Source of the DNA: Candidatus Wolfebacteria bacterium
Lineage (GTDB): Bacteria; Patescibacteriota; Minisyncoccia; UBA6257; UBA9933
Length of the DNA: 64,000 bases
Assembly (NCBI GenBank): GCA_016214005.1
Contig: JACRPK010000001.1
Location: 23,823-87,822, forward strand
Reading direction: 5' to 3'
The notes below the pieces were generated by a model. It was given only the letters and a program-made list of their open reading frames with translations, searched no databases and had not been told where the DNA came from. Of the stretch, positions 2,349 to 64,000 are shown in pieces. Each line of letters begins with the position of its first letter. Within the stretch, counting starts at the first letter, position 1. The position numbers were made by a program, and so were the translations under genes.

Positions 2349-5300
2349 TTGCGTTTTAAAATGAAAATCAATTCTAAAATTTTTTCTTCTCATCCGCAGC
2401 CATTTATTGAACAGCCGTTTTTAGCGGAAATCCAGCATAATTCATGGGAATGGTTTTTGGGAAAAGGTTTAAAAGAACTTTTTGCGGAAATTTCTCCGAT
2501 TAAAGATCCGTCTGGTAGAGAGTTGGAATTGCACTTTGTTGATTTTTATTTTGATGAGCCGAAATACGATGAAGAAACAGCATGGTCAAAAGACCTGACT
2601 TTTGAAGCGCCTCTTCGAGCAAAAGTAAAATTAGTAAATATCCGCACCAAACAAAAAACCGAACAAGAAATTTATATCGGAGATTTTCCGATGATGACTT
2701 CGCGCGGCACATTCATAATTAACGGCGTTGAGCGTGTTGTTGTCTCTCAATTAATCCGTTCTTCGGGCGTTTATTTTACGGCAGCTGGATATAGGGGCAG
2801 AAGCCTTTTCGGAGCCAAAGTGATTCCTGATCGCGGCAGCTGGCTGGAATTTGAAACCGATCCGGATGGATTTATTGGCGTAAAAATTGATCGCCATAGA
2901 AAAGCGGCGGCAACAGATTTATTAAAGGTTTTTGCCAATATGGCCGATAAAAAAGATTTTGAAAATAATGACAAAATTTTGAGTTTGTTTAAAGATATTG
3001 ATAGCGGCCAGATTAAATATATAGAAACAACTTTAAAGAAGAGCGGCACTAAAACTTTTAATGATTCTTATGCGGAAATTTATAAGAGATTAAGGCCGGG
3101 CGATTTGGCAACTTATGAAAATGCCAAAAATTTGATTGACGCCATGTTTGAAAGGGGAGATCGCTATAGCCTTTCAGAGCCGGGCAGGTTTAAATTTAAT
3201 TCTCGTCTTGATATAAAAGGCAATAAGTCAACCTTGCTTGGCTTGGAAGACATTATTTTAATAATCAAGGAAATTATCAGGCTCAATAATGATTCAATGG
3301 CTCAGCCGGATGATATAGATCATTTGGGAAATCGTCGTTTGCGCGCTATTGGCGAGCTTTTGCAAAGCCGTCTTCATGTCGGTTTTCAGAGAATGAGAAG
3401 GATTGCCTTGGATAGAATGTCAACATCAGAAGCCGAGATGATTACTCCGGCTCAAGTTATTAATTCTCGTCCGCTTATGGCGATTGTCAAAGAATTTTTC
3501 ATGACTTCGCAATTGTCGCAATTTATGAATCAAATTAATACCTTGGCTGAACTTGAACACAAACGCTTGCTTTCTTCAATGGGACCAGGAGGTCTTACAA
3601 GAGAACGCGCCGGTTTTGAAGTCCGCGATGTGCATATTTCTCACTATGGCAGAATTTGTCCGATTCAAACTCCGGAAGGAGCTAACATCGGTTTAATAAA
3701 TTATTTGGCGAATTACGCGAGAATTAACGAATTCGGATTTTTAGAAACTCCTTATGTTAAAGTTAAAAACGGAAAACTTACCGATGAAATCGTATGGTTT
3801 AATGCCACTGAAGAAGAAAAATATAAAATTGCTCAAGGTAGCAGTAAATTAGACGGCAAGAAAATTATTGATGATGCCATTGAAATTCGTTTTAAGGGAA
3901 AACCGGGCACTTGTTTAAAAGATGAAGTTGAATACATTGACGCGGCGCCAAATCAAATCGTGAGCGTTGCTTCGTCTCTAATTCCATTTTTAGAACATGA
4001 TGATGCAAACCGCGCGTTGATGGGTTCAAACATGCAACGCCAAGCTGTGCCGTCTATTGTTCCTTCGGCGCCATTGGTTTCAACCGGGGCTGAAGATAAA
4101 GCGGCTTATGATTCCGGCCGCGTGGTAATTTCTGAAACAGACGGTGAAGTCGTTGAACTTGATGCCGGAAAAATAGTTGTTGAAGACAAGGCTGGCAAAA
4201 AGAAAAATTATAATCTTTATAAATTCCGTCGCTCCAATTATTTCACATCTATTTCTCAAAAGCCTATTGTTGAAAAAGGCCAGAAGGTGAAGCGCGGAGA
4301 TGTTTTGGCCGACGGCGCTTCAACGGAAAACGGCGTTTTGGCTTTGGGACAAAATTTGCTAGTTGCCTTTACTTCTTGGGAAGGCGCAAACTTTGAAGAT
4401 GCCATTGTTCTTTCGGAACGCGTTGTAAAAAATGATTTATTCACTTCTATTCATATTGAAAATTTTTATTGCGATGTTAGGGATACAAAGCTTGGGCCCG
4501 AATTAACAAGTCCAGATATTCCGAATGTTTCCGAAGATAAATTAAAAAATCTTGATGAAGAGGGAATTATTAGAATCGGCGCCGAAGTTTCAGCTGGAGA
4601 TATTTTAGTCGGGAAAATTTCTCCAAAAGGAGAAGTTGAAATATCTTCTGAGGAAAAATTATTGCGCGCGATTTTCGGTGAAAAAGCAAGAGATATTAAA
4701 GATACTTCATTGGTAATGCCGCACGGAAAATCAGGTAGGATCGTCGGCATTAAAATTTTCTCGCGCGATCATGGAGATAAACTTGAACCTGGCGTGATTA
4801 AAAGAATTCAAGTTGAAGTGGCGCAGCTTAGAAAAGTGCGAGCAGGCGATAAATTGGCCGGTCGCCACGGCAACAAAGGCGTAATTTCTCAAATTAGACC
4901 AATGGAAGATATGCCCTATCTTGAAGACGGCACGCCAGTTGATATTGTTTTAAATCCGCTTGGTGTTGCCTCCAGAATGAATCTTGGTCAAATTTTAGAA
5001 ACTCATTTGGGTTTGGCCGCTAAAAAGCTTGGTTATCGCGCCATTACTCCGGTTTTCGTCGGCGCCAGTGAAGAAGATATTAAGTCCGAACTTAAAAAAG
5101 CCGGCTATTCTCAAGACGGAAAATTGCAAGTTTATGACGGAAGAACCGGCAATCCTTTGCCGTCGCCGATAACAGTTGGATATATTTATATGTTAAAACT
5201 TAACCATTTGGTTGAAGATAAAATTCACATGAGATCTATCGGCCCGTATTCATTAATTACCCAGCAGCCTCTTGGCGGAAAAGCTCAATTTGGAGGGCAG

Positions 5301-5561
5301 CGTTTCGGAGAAATGGAAGTCTGGGCTTTGGAGGGTTATGGCGCAGCGCATATTTTGCAGGAAGTTTTGACAATCAAATCAGATGATGTTTTGGGAAGGA
5401 CAGCGGCTTTTGAATCGATAATCAGGAACGAAAAAATAAAAAGTCCGAGCATTCCGTCAGCTTTCAATGTATTGCTTAATGAAATGAAAGCTTTGGGACT
5501 TGATGTTGAAACAAAAGGCGGCGAAGAGAAAAAAGAAATCAGAAGAAAATCAATAAAATAA
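2349..5561 (+). CDS. rpoB: DNA-directed RNA polymerase subunit beta
   Basis: 1070 aa; conserved RpoB blocks (…GDKLAGRHGNKGV…, …NMQRQAVP…, C-terminal GGQRFGEMEVWALEGYGAA). Confidence 0.95.
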   Translation: MRFKMKINSKIFSSHPQPFIEQPFLAEIQHNSWEWFLGKGLKELFAEISPIKDPSGRELELHFVDFYFDEPKYDEETAWSKDLTFEAPLRAKVKLVNIRTKQKTEQEIYIGDFPMMTSRGTFIINGVERVVVSQLIRSSGVYFTAAGYRGRSLFGAKVIPDRGSWLEFETDPDGFIGVKIDRHRKAAATDLLKVFANMADKKDFENNDKILSLFKDIDSGQIKYIETTLKKSGTKTFNDSYAEIYKRLRPGDLATYENAKNLIDAMFERGDRYSLSEPGRFKFNSRLDIKGNKSTLLGLEDIILIIKEIIRLNNDSMAQPDDIDHLGNRRLRAIGELLQSRLHVGFQRMRRIALDRMSTSEAEMITPAQVINSRPLMAIVKEFFMTSQLSQFMNQINTLAELEHKRLLSSMGPGGLTRERAGFEVRDVHISHYGRICPIQTPEGANIGLINYLANYARINEFGFLETPYVKVKNGKLTDEIVWFNATEEEKYKIAQGSSKLDGKKIIDDAIEIRFKGKPGTCLKDEVEYIDAAPNQIVSVASSLIPFLEHDDANRALMGSNMQRQAVPSIVPSAPLVSTGAEDKAAYDSGRVVISETDGEVVELDAGKIVVEDKAGKKKNYNLYKFRRSNYFTSISQKPIVEKGQKVKRGDVLADGASTENGVLALGQNLLVAFTSWEGANFEDAIVLSERVVKNDLFTSIHIENFYCDVRDTKLGPELTSPDIPNVSEDKLKNLDEEGIIRIGAEVSAGDILVGKISPKGEVEISSEEKLLRAIFGEKARDIKDTSLVMPHGKSGRIVGIKIFSRDHGDKLEPGVIKRIQVEVAQLRKVRAGDKLAGRHGNKGVISQIRPMEDMPYLEDGTPVDIVLNPLGVASRMNLGQILETHLGLAAKKLGYRAITPVFVGASEEDIKSELKKAGYSQDGKLQVYDGRTGNPLPSPITVGYIYMLKLNHLVEDKIHMRSIGPYSLITQQPLGGKAQFGGQRFGEMEVWALEGYGAAHILQEVLTIKSDDVLGRTAAFESIIRNEKIKSPSIPSAFNVLLNEMKALGLDVETKGGEEKKEIRRKSIK

Positions 5562-5566
5562 TCAAT

Positions 5567-8500
5567 ATGAATTTCAAATCTTTAAAAATCCAATTGGCTT
5601 CTCCTGAAAAAATTCTTTCCTGGTCTTACGGGGAAGTATTGAAGCCGGAAACCATAAATTATAGGACTCAGCGTCCAGAAAAAGACGGATTATTTTCCGA
5701 GCGGATTTTCGGTCCGACCAAAGATTTTGAATGTTATTGCGGAAAATATAAAAGGATTCGTTATAAAGGTTTAAAGTGTGATAAGTGCGGAGTGGAAGTG
5801 ACGAAGTCTTCAGTTCGTCGCGAGAGAATGGGGCACATTAATTTGGCGTCTCCGGTTGTTCATATTTGGTTTTTAAGGAGCATTCCTTCAAGAATTGGGC
5901 TTTTTATTAATGCGCCTATTCAAAAACTCACTAAGGTTATTTATTATGCCGCGTATATTGTTACTTTTGTCAATGAAGAAAAGAAAAAAGAATATTTTGA
6001 AGAGATCGACAAAGAATTCAAGTCAAAAAAGAAAGCCATTGAAAAAGGAAAATTAAAAGATTTGGAAGAAGCGACCATTATTGCTAAGGAAAATTTGAAA
6101 GCTTTGGAAGTTGGGAAAATTTTGACTGAAACTGAATATAATTTATTGGTAAGGAAATTTGCCGGAGTTTTTAAAGCCTCAAACGGGGCGGAGGCTATAA
6201 GGAATATTTTGGCGGCAATTGATCTTGAAAAAGAAGCCGAAAGAGTTGAGAAAGAAGCTAAAAATGTCAAAGATGCGGGAAAATCGCGCAAGCTTCTTTA
6301 TAAATTAAAAGTCATTAAATCTTTTATTAAAAATAAAATGAGACCGGAGTGGATGATTATGACCGTTTTACCGGTTTTACCTCCTGATTTGCGTCCAATG
6401 GTGCCTTTAGATGGAGGCCGTTATGCTACTTCTGATTTGAACGATTTATATAGAAGGGTTATTAATAGAAATGATCGTTTGAAAAAACTTTTAGAAATAA
6501 AAGCTCCGGAAATAATTGTTACCAATGAAAAAAGAATGCTCCAGGAGGCAGTTGACGCTTTAATTGACAATTCATCGCGCCTGGGAAGCCAACAGCAGCT
6601 TTCGGCTTCGCGTCGTCCGCTTAAATCTTTGGCAGATATTTTAAAGGGGAAAGAAGGAAGATTCCGTCAGAATTTACTTGGAAAACGCGTTGATTATTCC
6701 GGCCGTTCGGTTATTGTTGTCGGTCCTGATTTGAAACTTAACGAATGCGGTTTGCCGAAAAAAATGGCTTTGGAATTATTTAAACCGTTTGTTTCCAGCA
6801 AAATTATTGAAAGGGGAATGGCTCATAATATTAGAAACGCCAATCGCTTGATAGAAGCGGCAACTCCGGAAATCTGGGAAATTTTAGAAGAAGTTATTAA
6901 AGATAAAAAAGTTTTACTTAACCGCGCTCCGACTCTTCATCGTTTGGGTATACAGGCTTTTAAGCCAGTTTTGATTGAAGATTTGGCGATTAGAATACCG
7001 CCGATGGTCTGTAGCGCTTTTAACGCCGATTTCGATGGTGATCAAATGGCGGTTCATTTGCCGCTTTCCGAAGAGGCTCAAAAAGAAGCAACTGAAAAAA
7101 TGCTTGCTTCGGGAAATATTTTAAAGCCTTCAACCGGTGATCCGATTGCCCAGCCGACTCAAGACGTCGTTTTGGGATGTTATTATCTGACAAAAATCAA
7201 GCCAATAGGCGCTCAAAATATTAAAATTTTTTCGTCTCAAGAAGAGGCGTTGATGGCGTTTCATTTTGAAATAATAGAAATCAATGAATTGATTAAAGTT
7301 TGTTTGCCGGAAATGGGAATTGTTGAAACTAGCGCCGGCAGATTAATTTTTAACGGCGTTTTACCGAAAGATTTCGGTTTTATTAATAAACAGATGAATA
7401 AAAAAGAGCTTGGCAAACTTTTGTCAGCTCTTATTGATAAATATGGCGTTAAAAATATTTGGATGATTTTGGACGAAATCAAGCTTTTGGGCAATAAATA
7501 CGCGACTATCAGCGGAGTAAGCTGGGGCATGGATGATTTAACTGTTCCGCAGGAAAAGAAAAAAATTGTTGAAGCCGCGGAAAAAGAAGAAAAAATCATC
7601 AAAGAACAATACGAAGAAGGCCTTTTGACTGATTCCGAACGCCATTCGCGGGCAACGGCGATTTGGGATAAAACAAAAGAAGAAGTGGCAAAAGTTGTTC
7701 CTAAAACTCTTGATCCGCTTAGCTCGGTTTTTACAATTATTGATTCCGGCAGCCGCGGAAGCTGGTCTCAGCCTATTCAAATGATGGGCATGAAAGGTTT
7801 GGTTCAGAATCCGCAAGGTGAAACCATAGAACTCCCAATTAAATCTTCATATAAAGAAGGGCTTAGCGTTTTGGAATTTTTCATCAACACCCACGGCGCC
7901 AGAAAAGGCTTAACTGATACGGCTCTTAAAACCGCCCAAGCCGGATATCTTACGAGGCGCTTAGTTGATGTTTCTCAAGATTTAGTAATAAGAGAAAACG
8001 ATTGTAAAACTACCAAAGGCATAACGATGTTTAGAAGCGATAGCGACGAATATGGAGTTCCTTTTAGTCAAAGGATTTTCGGCAGAACGGCTTTAAGCGA
8101 TATTAAATCAGGAAATAAAATTTTTGTTGAAGCCGGAGAAATTATCGGCCGCAATAAAGCTGAAGAAATAGAAAAAGCAAAAATTGAGAGCATCGAAGCA
8201 AGATCGCCGATGACTTGTAAATCAACAAACGGCATTTGTTCAAAATGTTATGGTTTTGATTTGTCAAAAATTCAGCCTATTGAATTGGGAGAGGCGGTTG
8301 GCGTTATAGCGGCTCAATCAATCGGCGAGCCTGGCACTCAGCTTACTTTGAGGACATTCCATACCGGCGGCGTGGCGGGCGTTGATATTACCCATGGTCT
8401 TCAAAGAATTCAAGAGCTTTTTGAAGTCCGCGTGCCGAAAGGCAAGGCGGCTTTGGCTGAAAACGATGGATCCATAGAAGAAATTGAAGATAATAAATCA

Positions 8501-60319: not shown

Positions 60320-61888
60320 TTGATTATGATTCCTAAAAATAAAATTATTAAGGTTGTGGATGTTGTTTCTCGTCCAGATGTTTTGAAGCAAAAAGAAGAA
60401 GATGAAAAATCAGAAGAAATTAGAGAAATAAAAGATATTAAAAAACCTTTCAAAATATCTTTGAATTTGTTTGGTAAAAAGAAACAAGAAAAAAAAGAAA
60501 TTATTATTGAAGAATCTAAAAAATCAAAACAAGAAATCATATCTGATTTTTTCAAGCCAAGAAAGTCGAAAGGGGATGAATTTATTGAAAAAAAATTAGA
60601 GGAAGAGCCGAAAATAGAATTTAAAAAAGAAAAAGTTAAAATAATTCATCCAGTTGAGGAAATTGAAGAGGAAACTGAATTGGGGGCTTCAAAAGAAGAC
60701 GGCGATTTTCTTAAAGAAGAAATCGGCGTTGAATCTGAGTCTATATGGCTAAGATTTAAAAAATATTTTGCGATATTTTTATTTTTAGCGCTTGCTGGCG
60801 CAGGAGTTTACGCGGCAGCGATTATTTTACCAATGGCCGATATAAAAATTATTACTAAAAAATCCGCATGGAATTTTGATGGCGCGATAGTTGCTTTTAA
60901 AAATGCTGCTGATATTAATTGGCAGGAAAAACAAATCCCCGGATCGTTTTTTTCTGAAACAAAAAATACAAGTTTGGCATTTGAGGCAACCGGTAAAAAA
61001 AATGTTGAAAGAAAAGCGGGCGGTGAAATTATCGTTTATAATGCTTTTAGTTCGGAATCCCAATCTTTGGTAAAAGGAACCAGATTTGAAGCGCCGGACG
61101 GAAAAATTTACAGACTTGACAGCGGATTGATAATCCCCGGAGCGAAAATCAGCGATGGGAAAATTATTCCTTCAAGCGTTAAAGCAAAAGTTTCGGCTGA
61201 TAAGGCTGGGCAAGATTATAATATTGCTCCGGTTGAAAAATTCACCATTCCCGGATTTAAAAATTCACCAAAATATAACGGTTTTTACGCCAAATCAGAA
61301 TCTCCAATGGTGGGCGGATTTGTCGGTGAACTGCCTTATCCGACCGATGCGGATATAAAATCAGCCAGGGAAAAAACGGAAATTACCCTGAAAGAAACTC
61401 TAAACGCTTTAATGGCGTCGCAGATTCCTAATGATTTTAAAGTTATTGACAGCGCCAAACAATTTTTAATAACCAAAGAAAATATAAATAAAGATGTTGA
61501 TGAAAACGGAAAATTTTCAGTCTTTCTTGAGGGGGAAATGGCAATAGCCGCTTTTAGGGAAGAAGATGTTTTGAAATTAATGGCTGTTTTGGCGAAACAA
61601 TCGCTTGGTGAAAATTTTGAAGCTAAAAGTTTTGATTTCAATTATGGCATTGGGCAAGTTGATTTAGGAGTTGGAAAATTTTCGTTTGGCGTAAATTATA
61701 ATGGAACTTTTTGGCAACCGATAAATATTGATAATTTTAAAAATACTATTTTAGGGAAAAAAGAAATTGAATTAAAAACATCGGTATTTTTAATTCCCGG
61801 AGTTGAAAAAGCGACTGTTTCATTCTGGCCGTTTTGGGTAAAATCTGTTCCTAATAGCGTTAAAAGAATTAATGTTGCTGTTGAATAA
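60320..61888 (+). CDS. hypothetical single-pass membrane protein with K/E-rich cytoplasmic N-terminus and large extracytoplasmic domain
   Basis: 522 aa; TM FAIFLFLALAGAGVYAAAIILP at ~aa 150. Confidence 0.5.
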   Translation: MIMIPKNKIIKVVDVVSRPDVLKQKEEDEKSEEIREIKDIKKPFKISLNLFGKKKQEKKEIIIEESKKSKQEIISDFFKPRKSKGDEFIEKKLEEEPKIEFKKEKVKIIHPVEEIEEETELGASKEDGDFLKEEIGVESESIWLRFKKYFAIFLFLALAGAGVYAAAIILPMADIKIITKKSAWNFDGAIVAFKNAADINWQEKQIPGSFFSETKNTSLAFEATGKKNVERKAGGEIIVYNAFSSESQSLVKGTRFEAPDGKIYRLDSGLIIPGAKISDGKIIPSSVKAKVSADKAGQDYNIAPVEKFTIPGFKNSPKYNGFYAKSESPMVGGFVGELPYPTDADIKSAREKTEITLKETLNALMASQIPNDFKVIDSAKQFLITKENINKDVDENGKFSVFLEGEMAIAAFREEDVLKLMAVLAKQSLGENFEAKSFDFNYGIGQVDLGVGKFSFGVNYNGTFWQPINIDNFKNTILGKKEIELKTSVFLIPGVEKATVSFWPFWVKSVPNSVKRINVAVE

Positions 61889-61936: not shown

Positions 61937-62008
61937 GGTGGCCATAGCTTAGTGGTAAAGCTCCGCTCTGTGGAAGCGGCTATACGGGTTCGATTCCCGT
62001 TGGTCACC
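61937..62008 (+). tRNA. tRNA-His (anticodon GTG) with encoded G-1
   Basis: G(-1)-GTGGCCA-TA-GCTT-AGTGGTA-AAGC-T-CCGCT-CTGTGGA-AGCGG-CTAT-ACGGG-TTCGATT-CCCGT-TGGTCAC-C. Confidence 0.9.
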
Positions 62009-62044
62009 CCCTGAATTGGACATCTCATCTGTTATTGACAAATA

Positions 62045-62073
62045 TAGCGTTTAGGTGTATACTAAATATAGTT
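62045..62073 (+). promoter_or_regulatory. near-consensus sigma70 promoter TTGACA-17-TATACT driving DGR target gene
   Basis: TTGACA 62045-50, 17-nt spacer, TATACT 62068-73; ~130-nt 5'UTR; RBS AAGGAG 8 nt before ATG 62213. Confidence 0.5.
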
Positions 62074-62102
62074 CTTTGATAAAACTTGCGATTGGTCATA
62101 GC

Positions 62103-62152
62103 GAAAAGTGGCTTAAAACTAGGCTATTCCTCGCTATGACCATACAGGCCAT
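62103..62152 (+). promoter_or_regulatory. 12-bp inverted repeat TGGTCATAGCGA…TCGCTATGACCA (26-nt spacer) in 5'UTR of DGR target
   Basis: Perfect 12-bp arms; could form RNA hairpin or operator. Confidence 0.4.
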
Positions 62153-62212
62153 GGTTCCTCCTCGGATTAGAGGAAAACGAAAACGGGCAAATTAACCCAA
62201 GGAGATACAATC

Positions 62213-62854
62213 ATGAGTGCAGGAACAGAATTCGCATCCGCCGGACTTACCGCCGGCCAACTCAACGCCATCGTCAAGAAGCTCGGTGGCCACGACATGG
62301 CGCTCCGTTTTCTCCGCGACGAACTCTCGGTTTCCGAACCGATCCGTTCGTGGCGCGAGAAAGACGGCGTCATCTACTTCAGCGTCACCTCCGACGGCAC
62401 GACTGGCGAAGACTGGATCAAGCGTCTGGAAGGCAACGGTTTCCGCGTCAGAGACTACGCCAAGCAGGTGCTCCGTTCCCCGGACTTCAAGCCGACCAAC
62501 GGCGAGACGACCGAAGTTGCCGTTCTCAAGGGCATGCTCTTCGAGGACAACGACCGGATCACGAAGAAGATTCGGGCCGAGGCCGACAAGCGCAAGCTCT
62601 CGAAGCCGAACGCCGAACTGGCCTGCCTCATCCGTCTGAAGTTCACGGACAAGGAGATCGAAGCCATGGGTCTGTGGTGGATCGTCGCAATGCACGAACC
62701 CATCAACGATTCCGACGGCGATCCGCGCTTGCTGGGCGCGAGCCGTTACGGCGATGGTCGCTGGCTCGGCGCGTGCAGCGGCAGGCCTGGCCTCGGGTGG
62801 CGTCGTGGCGTCGGGTTCGCGTTCGCCGTGTCGCAAGTCAGTTCTCAACACTAA
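62213..62854 (+). CDS. DGR target (variable) protein; C-terminal ~44 aa encoded by VR
   Basis: 213 aa, high-GC codon usage; VR at its 3' end; C-terminus …GVGFAFAVSQ; overlapping antisense/offset ORFs in track are GC-shadow ORFs. Confidence 0.7.
   Translation: MSAGTEFASAGLTAGQLNAIVKKLGGHDMALRFLRDELSVSEPIRSWREKDGVIYFSVTSDGTTGEDWIKRLEGNGFRVRDYAKQVLRSPDFKPTNGETTEVAVLKGMLFEDNDRITKKIRAEADKRKLSKPNAELACLIRLKFTDKEIEAMGLWWIVAMHEPINDSDGDPRLLGASRYGDGRWLGACSGRPGLGWRRGVGFAFAVSQVSSQH
62709..62839 (+). repeat. DGR variable repeat (VR), 131 bp
   Basis: Aligns gap-free with TR 63182-63312; ~23 mismatches, every one at a position where TR has A (VR has G/C/T). Confidence 0.75.
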
Positions 62855-62890
62855 GATCCTCGGGACTTCAGTCCCTTTGAACTTAGCCCT

Positions 62891-62931
62891 TAGCCCTGTT
62901 CCGATCCGTCGGAGCAGGGCTAATTTTTTTT
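62891..62931 (+). terminator. GC-rich stem-loop + U-tract downstream of VR (terminator and/or DGR target-recognition hairpin)
   Basis: TAGCCCTGttccga-tccg-tcggagCAGGGCTA followed by ATTTTTTTT; additional small hairpin GGGACTtcaGTCCC at 62868-62881. Confidence 0.6.
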
Positions 62932-63181
62932 CATAAAATATAAAATCGGCTATAATATTTACGGCAGTAGGTGAATATGTGGGCGGTCAAGGCTTCCCGC
63001 TACCGAACCCAGTATCCATGCATCGGGAGTATCCGCGGCCACGGTTTCGGATAGAGTGGTGCATGCAGAAACTTCAATAAAAAAGAAGATACTTGGCGCG
63101 AGACATTATGGCATTGCGATGCCGGATTCGATTCAGCCCTGAGAGTATTCGAGGGGTGGTGATATGGAAGATGTTTCGCGC

Positions 63182-63312
63182 AATCCGACGGCGATCCGAA
63201 CTTGCTGAACGCGAACCGTAACGACGATGGTCGCTGGCTCAACGCGTACAACGACAGGCCTGACAACAGGTGGAATCGTGACAACGGGTTCGCGTTCGCC
63301 GTGTCGCAAATC
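63182..63312 (+). repeat. DGR template repeat (TR), 131 bp, Asn(AAC)-rich in target frame
   Basis: In VR register encodes SDGDPNLLNANRNDDGRWLNAYNDRPDNRWNRDNGFAFAVSQI; all differences from VR are at TR adenines. Confidence 0.75.
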
Positions 63313-63315
63313 TCT

Positions 63316-63729
63316 TCATTTCTCTCCGGCTTTCGCTGGAGAGTTTTGTTTTGCGAGTTGTCCGTTCCAACCGCCGAGCATCTTGCCGGCTTCATCCAAC
63401 TTTACTGAAAGAGCAATGTATTTTTTATCGTCGAGTGATTTCGTTTCCCAGAGCACCAAAAGAAGTACGCGGAGAGTATCCGCTTTCTTAATCGCGAGGC
63501 GAACATACGGATGCTTCTCGGTAGGTGAGAGAAAACTGGCGGCCGATATCGCTTCTATCACTTCAACAAATAAAGTGTCGATGCGCTGACCGAGAGAATG
63601 ACGATGCACCTTGGGCAAGTCCTGATAAAATTTGTACCACAAAAGGTACGACTCCTTGACTTTATTTAAAACCGGTAAAATTCTTAATGGTTGGTTGCCA
63701 CCGTTATGTCCAAAATTAGATTTCAACAT
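63316..63729 (-). CDS. avd: Avd-like accessory variability determinant (four-helix-bundle protein)
   Basis: C-terminal ~110 aa …LLWYKFYQDLPKVHRHSLGQRIDTLFVEVIEAIS…KLDEAGKMLGGW… matches Avd/TIGR02436 pattern (VW..Y.L…FPK.E…LG.QI … IAEVGRMLGGW). Upstream part of the 223-aa track ORF overlaps RT and is shadow; start may be ATG 63729 or TTG 63642. Confidence 0.55.
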   Translation of the reverse strand: MLKSNFGHNGGNQPLRILPVLNKVKESYLLWYKFYQDLPKVHRHSLGQRIDTLFVEVIEAISAASFLSPTEKHPYVRLAIKKADTLRVLLLVLWETKSLDDKKYIALSVKLDEAGKMLGGWNGQLAKQNSPAKAGEK

Positions 63730-64000
63730 ACATATAATAATATCATTTCTCTCGAAAATCTCCTCGAGGCGTGGAAAGAATTTGTCCGCGGCAAGCGATC
63801 GCGTAAAGACGTGCAGGAATTCGAGCGAGATTTGATGACGAATCTTATCGCGCTTCACCGCGAGCTTGCCGCCAAAAAATATTCGCACTCGGCATATCAG
63901 CATTTCAAAATCGCCGATCCGAAACCGCGCGATATTCATAAAGCCAGCGTTCGGGACCGGCTTTTGCATCACGCATTGCACAGACAACTGTCGCCGTTTT
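63706..64000 (+). CDS. reverse transcriptase (DGR-type), 5' partial to window edge
   Basis: MSKIRFQHTYNNIISLENLLEAWKEFVRGKRSRKDVQEFERDLMTNLIALHRELAAKKYSHSAYQHFKIADPKPRDIHKASVRDRLLHHALHRQLSPF = RT domain 0/1/2 (…P.PR.I.K..G..R…DR..QHA). Confidence 0.8.
   Translation, partial: MSKIRFQHTYNNIISLENLLEAWKEFVRGKRSRKDVQEFERDLMTNLIALHRELAAKKYSHSAYQHFKIADPKPRDIHKASVRDRLLHHALHRQLSPF

Follow-up and report, generated by a model that had tools for sequence, protein, structure and literature searches.

Mechanistic knowledge of diversity-generating retroelements (DGRs) derives entirely from one phage element, BPP-1, in which the genes follow the order mtd with its variable repeat (VR), avd, template repeat (TR), spacer and brt. 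Published surveys have found DGRs to be significantly enriched in bacteria of the candidate phyla radiation (CPR). There, a different gene order, consisting of a target gene with VR, TR, avd on the reverse strand and the reverse transcriptase (RT), is known as architecture B3 (Wu et al. 2018, PMC5758913). B3 has been reported for 90% of CPR DGRs, and the elements were described as "not closely related ... to one another" (Wu et al. 2018, PMC5758913). A DGR clade found in Patescibacteria only has also been delineated, whose members are cellular and come mostly from aquatic habitats (Roux et al. 2021, PMC8144416). Transmembrane or other domains can typically not be recognised in its targets, and the role of such apparently non-secreted variable proteins was posed as an open question (Roux et al. 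2021, PMC8144416). Here, we analysed a locus at the 3' end of a stretch of 64,000 nucleotides, hereafter the window, from Candidatus Wolfebacteria (contig JACRPK010000001.1 of assembly GCA_016214005.1, positions 23,823 to 87,822 of the forward strand). With high confidence, the locus is a chromosomal DGR of the Patescibacteria type with B3 architecture, for which we propose a mechanism involving a permuted DGR RNA. An earlier note on this stretch had already interpreted the locus as a DGR. This interpretation is right, the element being a typical representative of an abundant kind that is already known (PMC5758913, PMC8144416). The note's wording "complete-looking" holds insofar as all named parts are in place; the element is not complete within the window, which ends at RT residue 98. 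The core parts are given below, with coordinates counted from the first base of the window.

62213-62854, plus strand: DGR target gene, 213 aa, residues 48-213 forming a predicted C-type-lectin fold
62709-62836, plus strand: VR, codons 166-208 of the 213-aa target, i.e. its 3' end
62812-62836, plus strand: invariant block inside VR without variable adenines, putative equivalent of the initiation of mutagenic homing (IMH) site
63182-63309, plus strand: TR, 32 adenines, ten AAC/AAT codons, non-coding here
63316-63729, minus strand: avd, stop codon at 63316-63318, assigned by homology to NF033474 and PF22296
63706-64000, plus strand: RT, N-terminal 98 residues from ATG 63706, gene cut by the window end

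As read from the sequence, TR, reverse-strand avd and RT follow one another in the order that defines B3, in a CPR genome, and no architectural difference from B3 CPR DGRs was observed. Gene order, orientations and host group are those of B3 and of DGR clade 2 of Roux et al. (2021), to which the locus is likened on these grounds. Likewise, the target is small and devoid of a recognisable domain, transmembrane segment or signal peptide, and the element is cellular, not viral. With BPP-1 the locus shares adenine-specific transfer from TR to VR, an Avd, an RT that is closest to the BPP-1 enzyme bRT, a target of C-type-lectin fold, a 3' end of both repeats that is invariant and rich in GC, and a hairpin downstream of VR. 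It differs from BPP-1 in that avd is located on the opposite strand between TR and RT, in that no spacer separates TR from the following gene, in that the conserved structured RNA lies 5' of TR and in being chromosomal instead of phage-borne. A spacer of the BPP-1 type was not found: after TR, only a 9-bp hairpin and a U-tract precede the antisense avd, and none of the Rfam RT motifs, including RT-10 (the BPP-1 spacer motif), matched in the window at E<=1. Three features analysed below, namely a leader RNA, a structured 5' untranslated region (5'UTR) of the target and the near-identity of the cassette between hosts, are undescribed in the published CPR DGR accounts compared.

An ungapped, position-by-position comparison of the two repeats over 131 bases (63182-63312 against 62709-62839, offset 473) revealed exactly 23 mismatches, where the earlier note had counted about 23 in a gap-free alignment. 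Its claim that every difference has A in the downstream copy was borne out at 23/23 positions (16 A>G, 4 A>T, 3 A>C), and all 98 non-A positions are identical (98/98). Hence 23 of the 33 adenines of this interval are substituted in VR; the probability that 23/23 mismatches hit 33 A of 131 positions by chance is P=3.7e-18. A repeat finder independently returned the same pair at 62711-62844 / 63184-63317 (82% identity). Relatives of the locus were collected as 80 loci, one genome per species, and are referred to by L numbers where necessary. The adenine mismatch at 63310 / 62837 lies just beyond the end of homology in most of them, their TRs carrying C, so that the conservative repeat is 62709-62836 / 63182-63309, with 22/22 mismatches at A. 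In the target frame, 30 of the 32 TR adenines occupy codon position 1 or 2. The ten AAC/AAT codons agree with the Asn-rich template noted before, and the 21 variable codons allow for ~1e18 theoretical protein variants. A second VR-like copy is absent from the 64-kb window. The confinement of TR/VR differences to adenines is the signature of a DGR. Since unlinked repeats would drift at non-A sites and none has done so here, the last homing event appears to be recent, and current activity of the element is likely, judged by this zero drift between the two sequences. The exact target protein was found elsewhere on only one 1.1-kb Logan contig, identical in sequence; the identical target is present in SRR12113397.

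The target had been described as a protein of 213 aa without an obvious signal peptide, ending in a tail reminiscent of formylglycine-generating enzyme (FGE) or C-type lectins. The open reading frame 62213-62854 does encode 213 aa, and contains no hydrophobic segment fit for a signal peptide or membrane anchor. No Pfam or NCBIfam model matched the protein, and a target-family profile retrieved nothing meaningful among PDB sequences. Structure prediction gave a model (pLDDT 85) with matches to C-type-lectin/FGE folds, among them those of the DGR targets TvpA and Mtd. For residues 48-213, the predicted fold agrees with that of Mtd (1yu0), TvpA (2y3c) and FGE-type variable proteins. In this model, the variable residues sit in the C-terminal strands and loop, and would thus be displayed on a C-type-lectin fold as in other DGRs. 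More than 2,100 close homologues were found (1,884 clusters at 50% identity). Compared with relatives, the non-variable scaffold displays dS values of 0.12-0.46 and dN/dS values of 0.14-0.5, which we read as purifying selection. In one related locus (L022, 947-1597) a paralogue with 38% identity and without a VR-type C-terminus adjoins the target. A word-indexed search of a 5.8-billion-protein collection returned no relative of this paralogue other than itself; it may be a non-diversified relative of the target scaffold.

The minus-strand gene abutting TR had been called Avd-like, and its stop codon (63316-63318) indeed lies four bases past TR end 63312. The protein matched NF033474 (E=4e-16, model positions 1-102 of 104, 59 bits; curated cut-off 80) and Pfam bAvd PF22296 (E=8e-10, 39.6 bits; cut-off 40). 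The assignment as an adjacent Avd is thus one of sequence homology and not of automatic naming; a search of solved structures in PDB gave no sequence match. Listing of the codons made ATG 63729-63727 the probable start, which remains uncertain. The RT begins at ATG 63706, as predicted. Among PDB sequences the sole match of the 98-aa fragment was 8ub7_A (E=1.6e-12), with K29, F66, R74 and I76 conserved in the alignment. These residues are named for the Bordetella phage bRT in a cryo-electron microscopy (cryo-EM) preprint (10.1101/2023.10.23.563531), which identifies 8ub7_A as this enzyme. The positions of the [I/L/V]GxxxSQ and YxDD motifs fall beyond the window end. An orthologue (L047, 7440-8453), 96% identical over the shared part, is full-length with 337 aa, matches Pfam RVT_1 and carries LPLGNLTSQ and YADD. 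In PDB searches its match to bRT (6.6e-43) was far stronger than that to the best group II intron RT (4.6e-18), in support of the earlier assignment to DGR-type enzymes. avd (minus) and RT (plus) begin head-to-head and overlap by ~24 nt (63706-63729) if the avd ATG is 63729. Consequently, each promoter would have to lie inside the other gene, or RT would be read through from the TR RNA. The head-to-head arrangement is kept in relatives such as L007, L012 and L050.

The most interesting result concerns the segment of ~220 nt that separates TR from the target terminator, the conservation of which exceeds that of the flanking coding sequence. The following elements were delineated in and around this leader.

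62963-63181, plus strand: structured leader of the DGR RNA (RNAalifold on a 23-locus alignment; no Rfam family)
62963-63065, plus strand: upstream domain of the leader, helices H1-H5
63079-63096, plus strand: near-invariant 18-nt box of the leader, AAAAAAGAAGATACTTGG
63096-63107/63170-63181, plus strand: leader helix H8
63110-63115/63118-63123, plus strand: leader helix H9
63136-63144/63149-63157, plus strand: leader helix H10
63307-63317, plus strand: TR 3' box CAA-ATC-TCTTC, predicted to pair with leader 63093-63095 (TTG) and 63085-63089 (GAAGA)
63322-63353, plus strand: 9-bp tetraloop hairpin (63322-63343) followed by TTTTGTTTTG, from a terminator scan

The alignment of 23 loci, spanning leader, TR and 3' hairpin, was folded with RNAalifold and yielded eleven helices outside TR. 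The structure comprises 69 pairs, and 95.8% of the alignment cells are paired, compared with 39-54% when the partners were slid. Changes on both sides were observed in 40 of the 69 pairs. Compensatory cells numbered 180, against 53.8 ± 7.1 in shuffled alignments, and 0 of 500 shuffles scored as high. H8, formed between the leader and the 12 nt that immediately precede TR, displays covariation at nine of its 12 pairs. Helices predicted inside TR, which served as a control, showed little covariation. The minimum free energy fold of the window's leader as a single sequence recovered H1-H5 and H8-H10. Covariation in the aligned sequences thus shows H1-H5 and H8-H11. No Rfam family, including the motifs RT-1 to RT-19, matched the leader at E<=1, and judged by these comparisons it would be an undescribed RNA family.

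The leader is also predicted to contact the far end of TR. In the RNAalifold structure, GAAGA pairs with UCUUC (H6) and UUG with CAA (H7), the 3' box at 63307-63317 overlapping the avd stop codon. The position of these helices coincides with the borders of the repeat: the 3' end of H8 (63181) is the base before the start of TR homology, and the H7 and H6 partners straddle its end. For H6, compensatory pairs were observed (GAAGC/GCTTC twice, AAAGT/GCTTT, AAAGA/TCTTT). H7 is rated weak on the sequences available. In a tabulation of the N:X pair, the C:G association had a P of only 0.03. Downstream of TR, the hairpin at 63322-63353 (helix 11) carries compensatory changes and its U-tract is conserved. 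It is encoded antisense in the C-terminal tail of avd, and occupies the place of the Avd-binding stem-loop of BPP-1 (Sp 3-33; 10.1101/2023.10.23.563531).

A scan of metagenomes with the 18-nt leader box returned 120 stretches, of which 82 bear the leader according to a profile search; the other 38, without a leader in the same search, were rejected as chance matches. In the leader-bearing loci avd was on the opposite strand in 66/66 and RT on the leader strand in 43/43, and in 56 metagenome loci an A-biased VR precedes TR by 310-450 nt. The position of avd is kept in ~35 genome loci and 66 metagenome loci. The target family of the window was present in only 19 of the 82. A case of two elements side by side was observed in L031, where a second DGR (3607-5598) lies directly upstream of the family target. 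Its leader RNA and avd are the same, its target (213 aa) and its TR are unrelated, and its H8 is fully compensated. Here too, the end of homology coincides with the site that pairs with the leader; the RT carries a frameshift or is truncated. As the leader is shared with unrelated TRs and targets, it is a core part of the retroelement class, not of one target. With the 18-nt box and the profile, such DGRs could be tracked down in metagenomes together with their TRs.

For BPP-1, the arrangement of the RNA is known from the cryo-EM preprint. It starts with the stop strand (end of avd), followed by TR and the Avd-binding stem-loop (10.1101/2023.10.23.563531). Next comes the primer strand Sp53-56, which pairs just 3' of the first templated base (10.1101/2023.10.23.563531). 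The remainder consists of the second stop strand (Sp59-70), a small stem-loop, adenosines, the thumb ring and the bRT-binding stem-loop (10.1101/2023.10.23.563531). In the window, the order from 63085 is the box GAAGA-UAC-UUG (63085-63095), the 5' strand of H8, H9, an A-containing linker and H10. The 3' strand of H8 (63170-63181), TR, the 3' box CAA-AUC-UCUUC and the tetraloop hairpin with its U-tract follow. Cutting the BPP-1 RNA between the Avd-binding stem-loop and the primer strand and joining its ends would produce the order of the window. The parts would thus be those of the BPP-1 RNA in circular permutation, with primer, stop and RT-binding elements 5' of TR. Such a permutation would make it possible for avd to lie antisense directly against TR.

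Based on these observations, the following mechanism is conceivable. The promoter-like site at 62928-62956 would drive a non-coding RNA of ~390 nt composed of leader, TR and the terminal hairpin with U-tract. A complex of RT and Avd would bind this DGR RNA. The leader box 63085-63095 would pair with the TR 3' box 63307-63317 and thereby position a leader nucleotide as primer in cis, while H8, joining the 12 nt upstream of TR to the leader, would constitute the stop duplex. Priming from a leader nucleotide near 63095 would start opposite ~G63306 and end at H8. Reverse transcription would be faithful except opposite adenines, and the cDNA would replace VR 62709-62836, with the invariant, A-free block 62812-62836 serving as the presumable homing (IMH-like) end. 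In this way up to 21 codons would be recoded, all of them for the face with which a small C-type-lectin protein without signal peptide binds its ligand. Of these steps, the non-coding RNA and the adenine-specific replacement of VR are based on the sequence itself, and protein binding, priming and stopping, the permuted order and the homing end are transferred from the BPP-1 model. Generalised, DGRs of type B3 in Patescibacteria would use a circularly permuted RNA, whose ~220-nt leader 5' of TR holds the primer strand, H8 and protein-binding hairpins and which has downstream of TR only a hairpin that resembles the Avd-binding one and acts as terminator. The leader would form an undescribed family common to unrelated TRs and targets, within a horizontally spreading cassette of ~2.7 kb that includes a riboswitch-like 5'UTR of the target. 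We put this proposal forward tentatively, as a whole that is quite possible and falls just short of probable. A permuted DGR RNA was not mentioned in the DGR literature searched. The covarying RNA 5' of TR offers a testable model of cDNA priming and stopping and of the antisense placement of avd, i.e. a hypothesis with good structural support.

Two alternatives question the element itself. That the locus is no DGR, and combines an ordinary partial gene duplication or recombination repeat with the RT of a group II intron or retron, is effectively refuted. The top named NCBIfam family for the L047 RT is a group II intron RT (E=5e-39), a match far below the cut-off, and NCBIfam contains no matching DGR RT model. 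However, the same RT is nearer to bRT and carries LGNLTSQ, an Avd homologue is adjacent, Rfam detected no intron RNA domains, and the adenine pattern, itself hardly compatible with chance, recurs in ~90 loci. It is improbable, too, that the DGR is a fossil of which the parts are real and homing has ceased, e.g. by an RT defect past the window, leaving VR as a frozen record. Such degenerate relatives do exist, as exemplified by the frameshifted RT of the second DGR in L031, the target truncated beside an insertion sequence (IS) in L047 and many orphan modules, and the RT is visible here to residue 98 only. Nevertheless, not one of the 98 non-A positions differs between TR and VR, even though the scaffold has diverged from relatives at the dS values given above, and open reading frames and RNA helices in the window are all intact.

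A third alternative retains the DGR and disputes the order of its RNA. If the TR transcript read through the hairpin 63322-63343 into antisense avd, this region would supply spacer and primer in the canonical order, and the leader would have another role, e.g. in RNA stability, regulation, RT loading or as the ~300-nt upstream requirement seen in BPP-1 retrohoming. All priming elements of BPP-1 are 3' of TR, and its long upstream sequence boosts retrohoming while being dispensable for cDNA synthesis. Moreover, the preprint reports putative stem-loops as well as upstream and downstream (stop) duplexes in CPR DGRs, from a survey limited to the 40 nt before and the 100 nt after TR (Handa et al., 10.1101/2023.10.23.563531), so that a canonical downstream spacer provided by antisense avd has to be considered. 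Several further points weigh against the permuted RNA or the parts it is built from. Both the primer nucleotide and the permutation are argued from topology. The leader folded as a single sequence has a z of only -1.7, H6 has ~10 exceptions among 67 distinct sequences, and H7 (UUG/CAA), good in the 23 loci, is lost in the metagenome set (CTA and CCA variants). Both Avd scores are slightly below the curated cut-offs, the RT can be judged for integrity only as far as the window reaches, and promoters and terminators are consensus matches only. On the other hand, the 12 nt upstream of TR pair with the leader through the covarying H8 and with nothing downstream, the U-tract after the post-TR hairpin is conserved, and the leader travels with unrelated TRs. 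Antisense avd, for its part, is constrained by coding and gave no Rfam match of the RT-10 kind. Taken together, we regard the canonical order as rather unlikely, yet as an alternative to be taken seriously, and continue with the permuted RNA as our working model.

The transcription signals and the 5'UTR of the target, together with the neighbouring tRNA gene, are as follows.

61937-62011, plus strand: tRNA-His(GTG) (ARAGORN; Rfam tRNA, 66 bits), 22 bp from the left edge of the cassette
62035-62063, plus strand: sigma-70-like promoter of the target, TTGACA-17-TATACT (promoter scan, 11/12)
62070-62212, plus strand: structured 5'UTR of the target (RNAalifold, 24 loci)
62093-62104/62131-62142, plus strand: 5'UTR helix P1, with an inner hairpin 62107-62115/62120-62128
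62160-62163/62170-62173, plus strand: 5'UTR helix P2
62185-62188/62195-62198, plus strand: 5'UTR helix P3, just before the AAGGAG Shine-Dalgarno sequence
62862-62875, plus strand: small GC hairpin GGGAC-TTCA-GTCCC, 25 nt past the end of VR homology
62890-62931, plus strand: intrinsic terminator of the target, a 15-bp stem (62890-62923) followed by T8
62928-62956, plus strand: promoter-like site for the TR RNA, TTTTCA-17-TATAAT (scan, 10/12)

Accordingly arranged are two units. One runs from the promoter 62035-62063 through 5'UTR and target to the terminator 62890-62931, the other from the promoter 62928-62956 through leader and TR to the terminator-like hairpin. The -10 box of the latter promoter is conserved, and the TR-avd-RT module begins at ~62940. 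Orphan target modules, described below, lose homology at the terminator. The earlier note had placed a GC hairpin just 3' of VR. Such a stem was found (62862-62875) and is partly conserved in a 35-locus alignment; the hairpin after VR is, however, foremost the transcription terminator at 62890-62931. The 5'UTR folds into four hairpins in the alignment of 24 loci, with compensatory changes in 18 of the 28 predicted pairs, and its single-sequence fold has a z of -5.3. In this fold the Shine-Dalgarno region is paired with AGUUCUUUG, the conserved 5' end of the 5'UTR. No Rfam family matched the 5'UTR. It resembles a translational control element, and it may be riboswitch-like or bind a protein.

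The full arrangement of target/VR, TR, avd and RT was present in ~35 of the 80 genome loci, and in all of these VR/TR mismatches fall overwhelmingly at TR adenines. In more than 20 loci, nucleotide homology with the relatives sets in sharply at ~62033, at the -35 box. Where the locus is complete, this homology extends as far as the RT stop, which delimits a cassette of ~2.7 kb. The cassette is 85-92% identical in genomes labelled Uhr-, Lipton-, Brenner-, Azam-, Harrison- and other "-bacteria". The GC content of the target is ~60% whatever that of the host (37-56%), and in the window the target has 61.7% compared with 36.6% for the rest; the cassette as a whole has ~60% GC in a genome of 37%. 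The host-independent GC content, together with the identity and the dS range of 0.12-0.46, indicates that the cassette has spread horizontally among distant Patescibacteria. As to a viral origin, no relatives of the cassette were found in IMG/VR and no match in INPHARED phages. The 5'UTR, which would occlude the Shine-Dalgarno sequence, and the host-independent composition point to a variable binder that looks intracellular, is expressed under regulation and spreads horizontally. Both therefore bear on the question of Roux et al. (2021) as to the role of non-secreted variable proteins.

About half of the loci consist of the target module only, from promoter to terminator (window 62033-62939). 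In these orphan modules (L004, L005, L006, L014, L016, L020, L021 and ~30 more), no TR, avd or RT was detected within 6 kb. Compared with the TR of the window, their VRs differ mainly at adenines, e.g. at 19/19, 21/21 and 16/16 positions. Because of this adenine bias they are real DGR targets, either served in trans or separated from their core by assembly breaks. The pattern is suggestive of diversification in trans or of a core that was lost recently.

In the window, as in seven related loci, the cassette is preceded on the same strand by a tRNA-His gene, a possible insertion hotspot. The islands adjoining tRNA-His contain IS transposases (Mutator, rve), Fic/DOC plus a TOTE primase domain, or housekeeping genes; no tyrosine integrase that could account for mobility was found in them. 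In L012 (5362-5436, 8892-8965, 9086-9104, 12170-12189) the cassette lies between direct repeats of the tRNA-His 3' end: its terminal 19 nt, together with the flanking hairpin, recur behind the cassette and once more at a greater distance. By their sequence, these repeats are like the att sites of tandem islands; an integrase is absent from inside, and genes for Fic/DOC and for a TOTE primase domain are located on the next island. IS transposases were observed directly upstream of the cassette in three relatives, of the Mutator family in L013 (4535-5764) and of the rve family in L023 (4914-5795) and L047 (4793-5749). In L047 it is the 5' end of the target gene that is truncated beside the IS. 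Upstream of tRNA-His, the window encodes a 522-aa protein (60320-61888) with a lysine/glutamate-rich N-terminus, one hydrophobic segment and a weak match to the GlxA beta-barrel domain (27.6 bits; cut-off 27), which is unrelated to the DGR.

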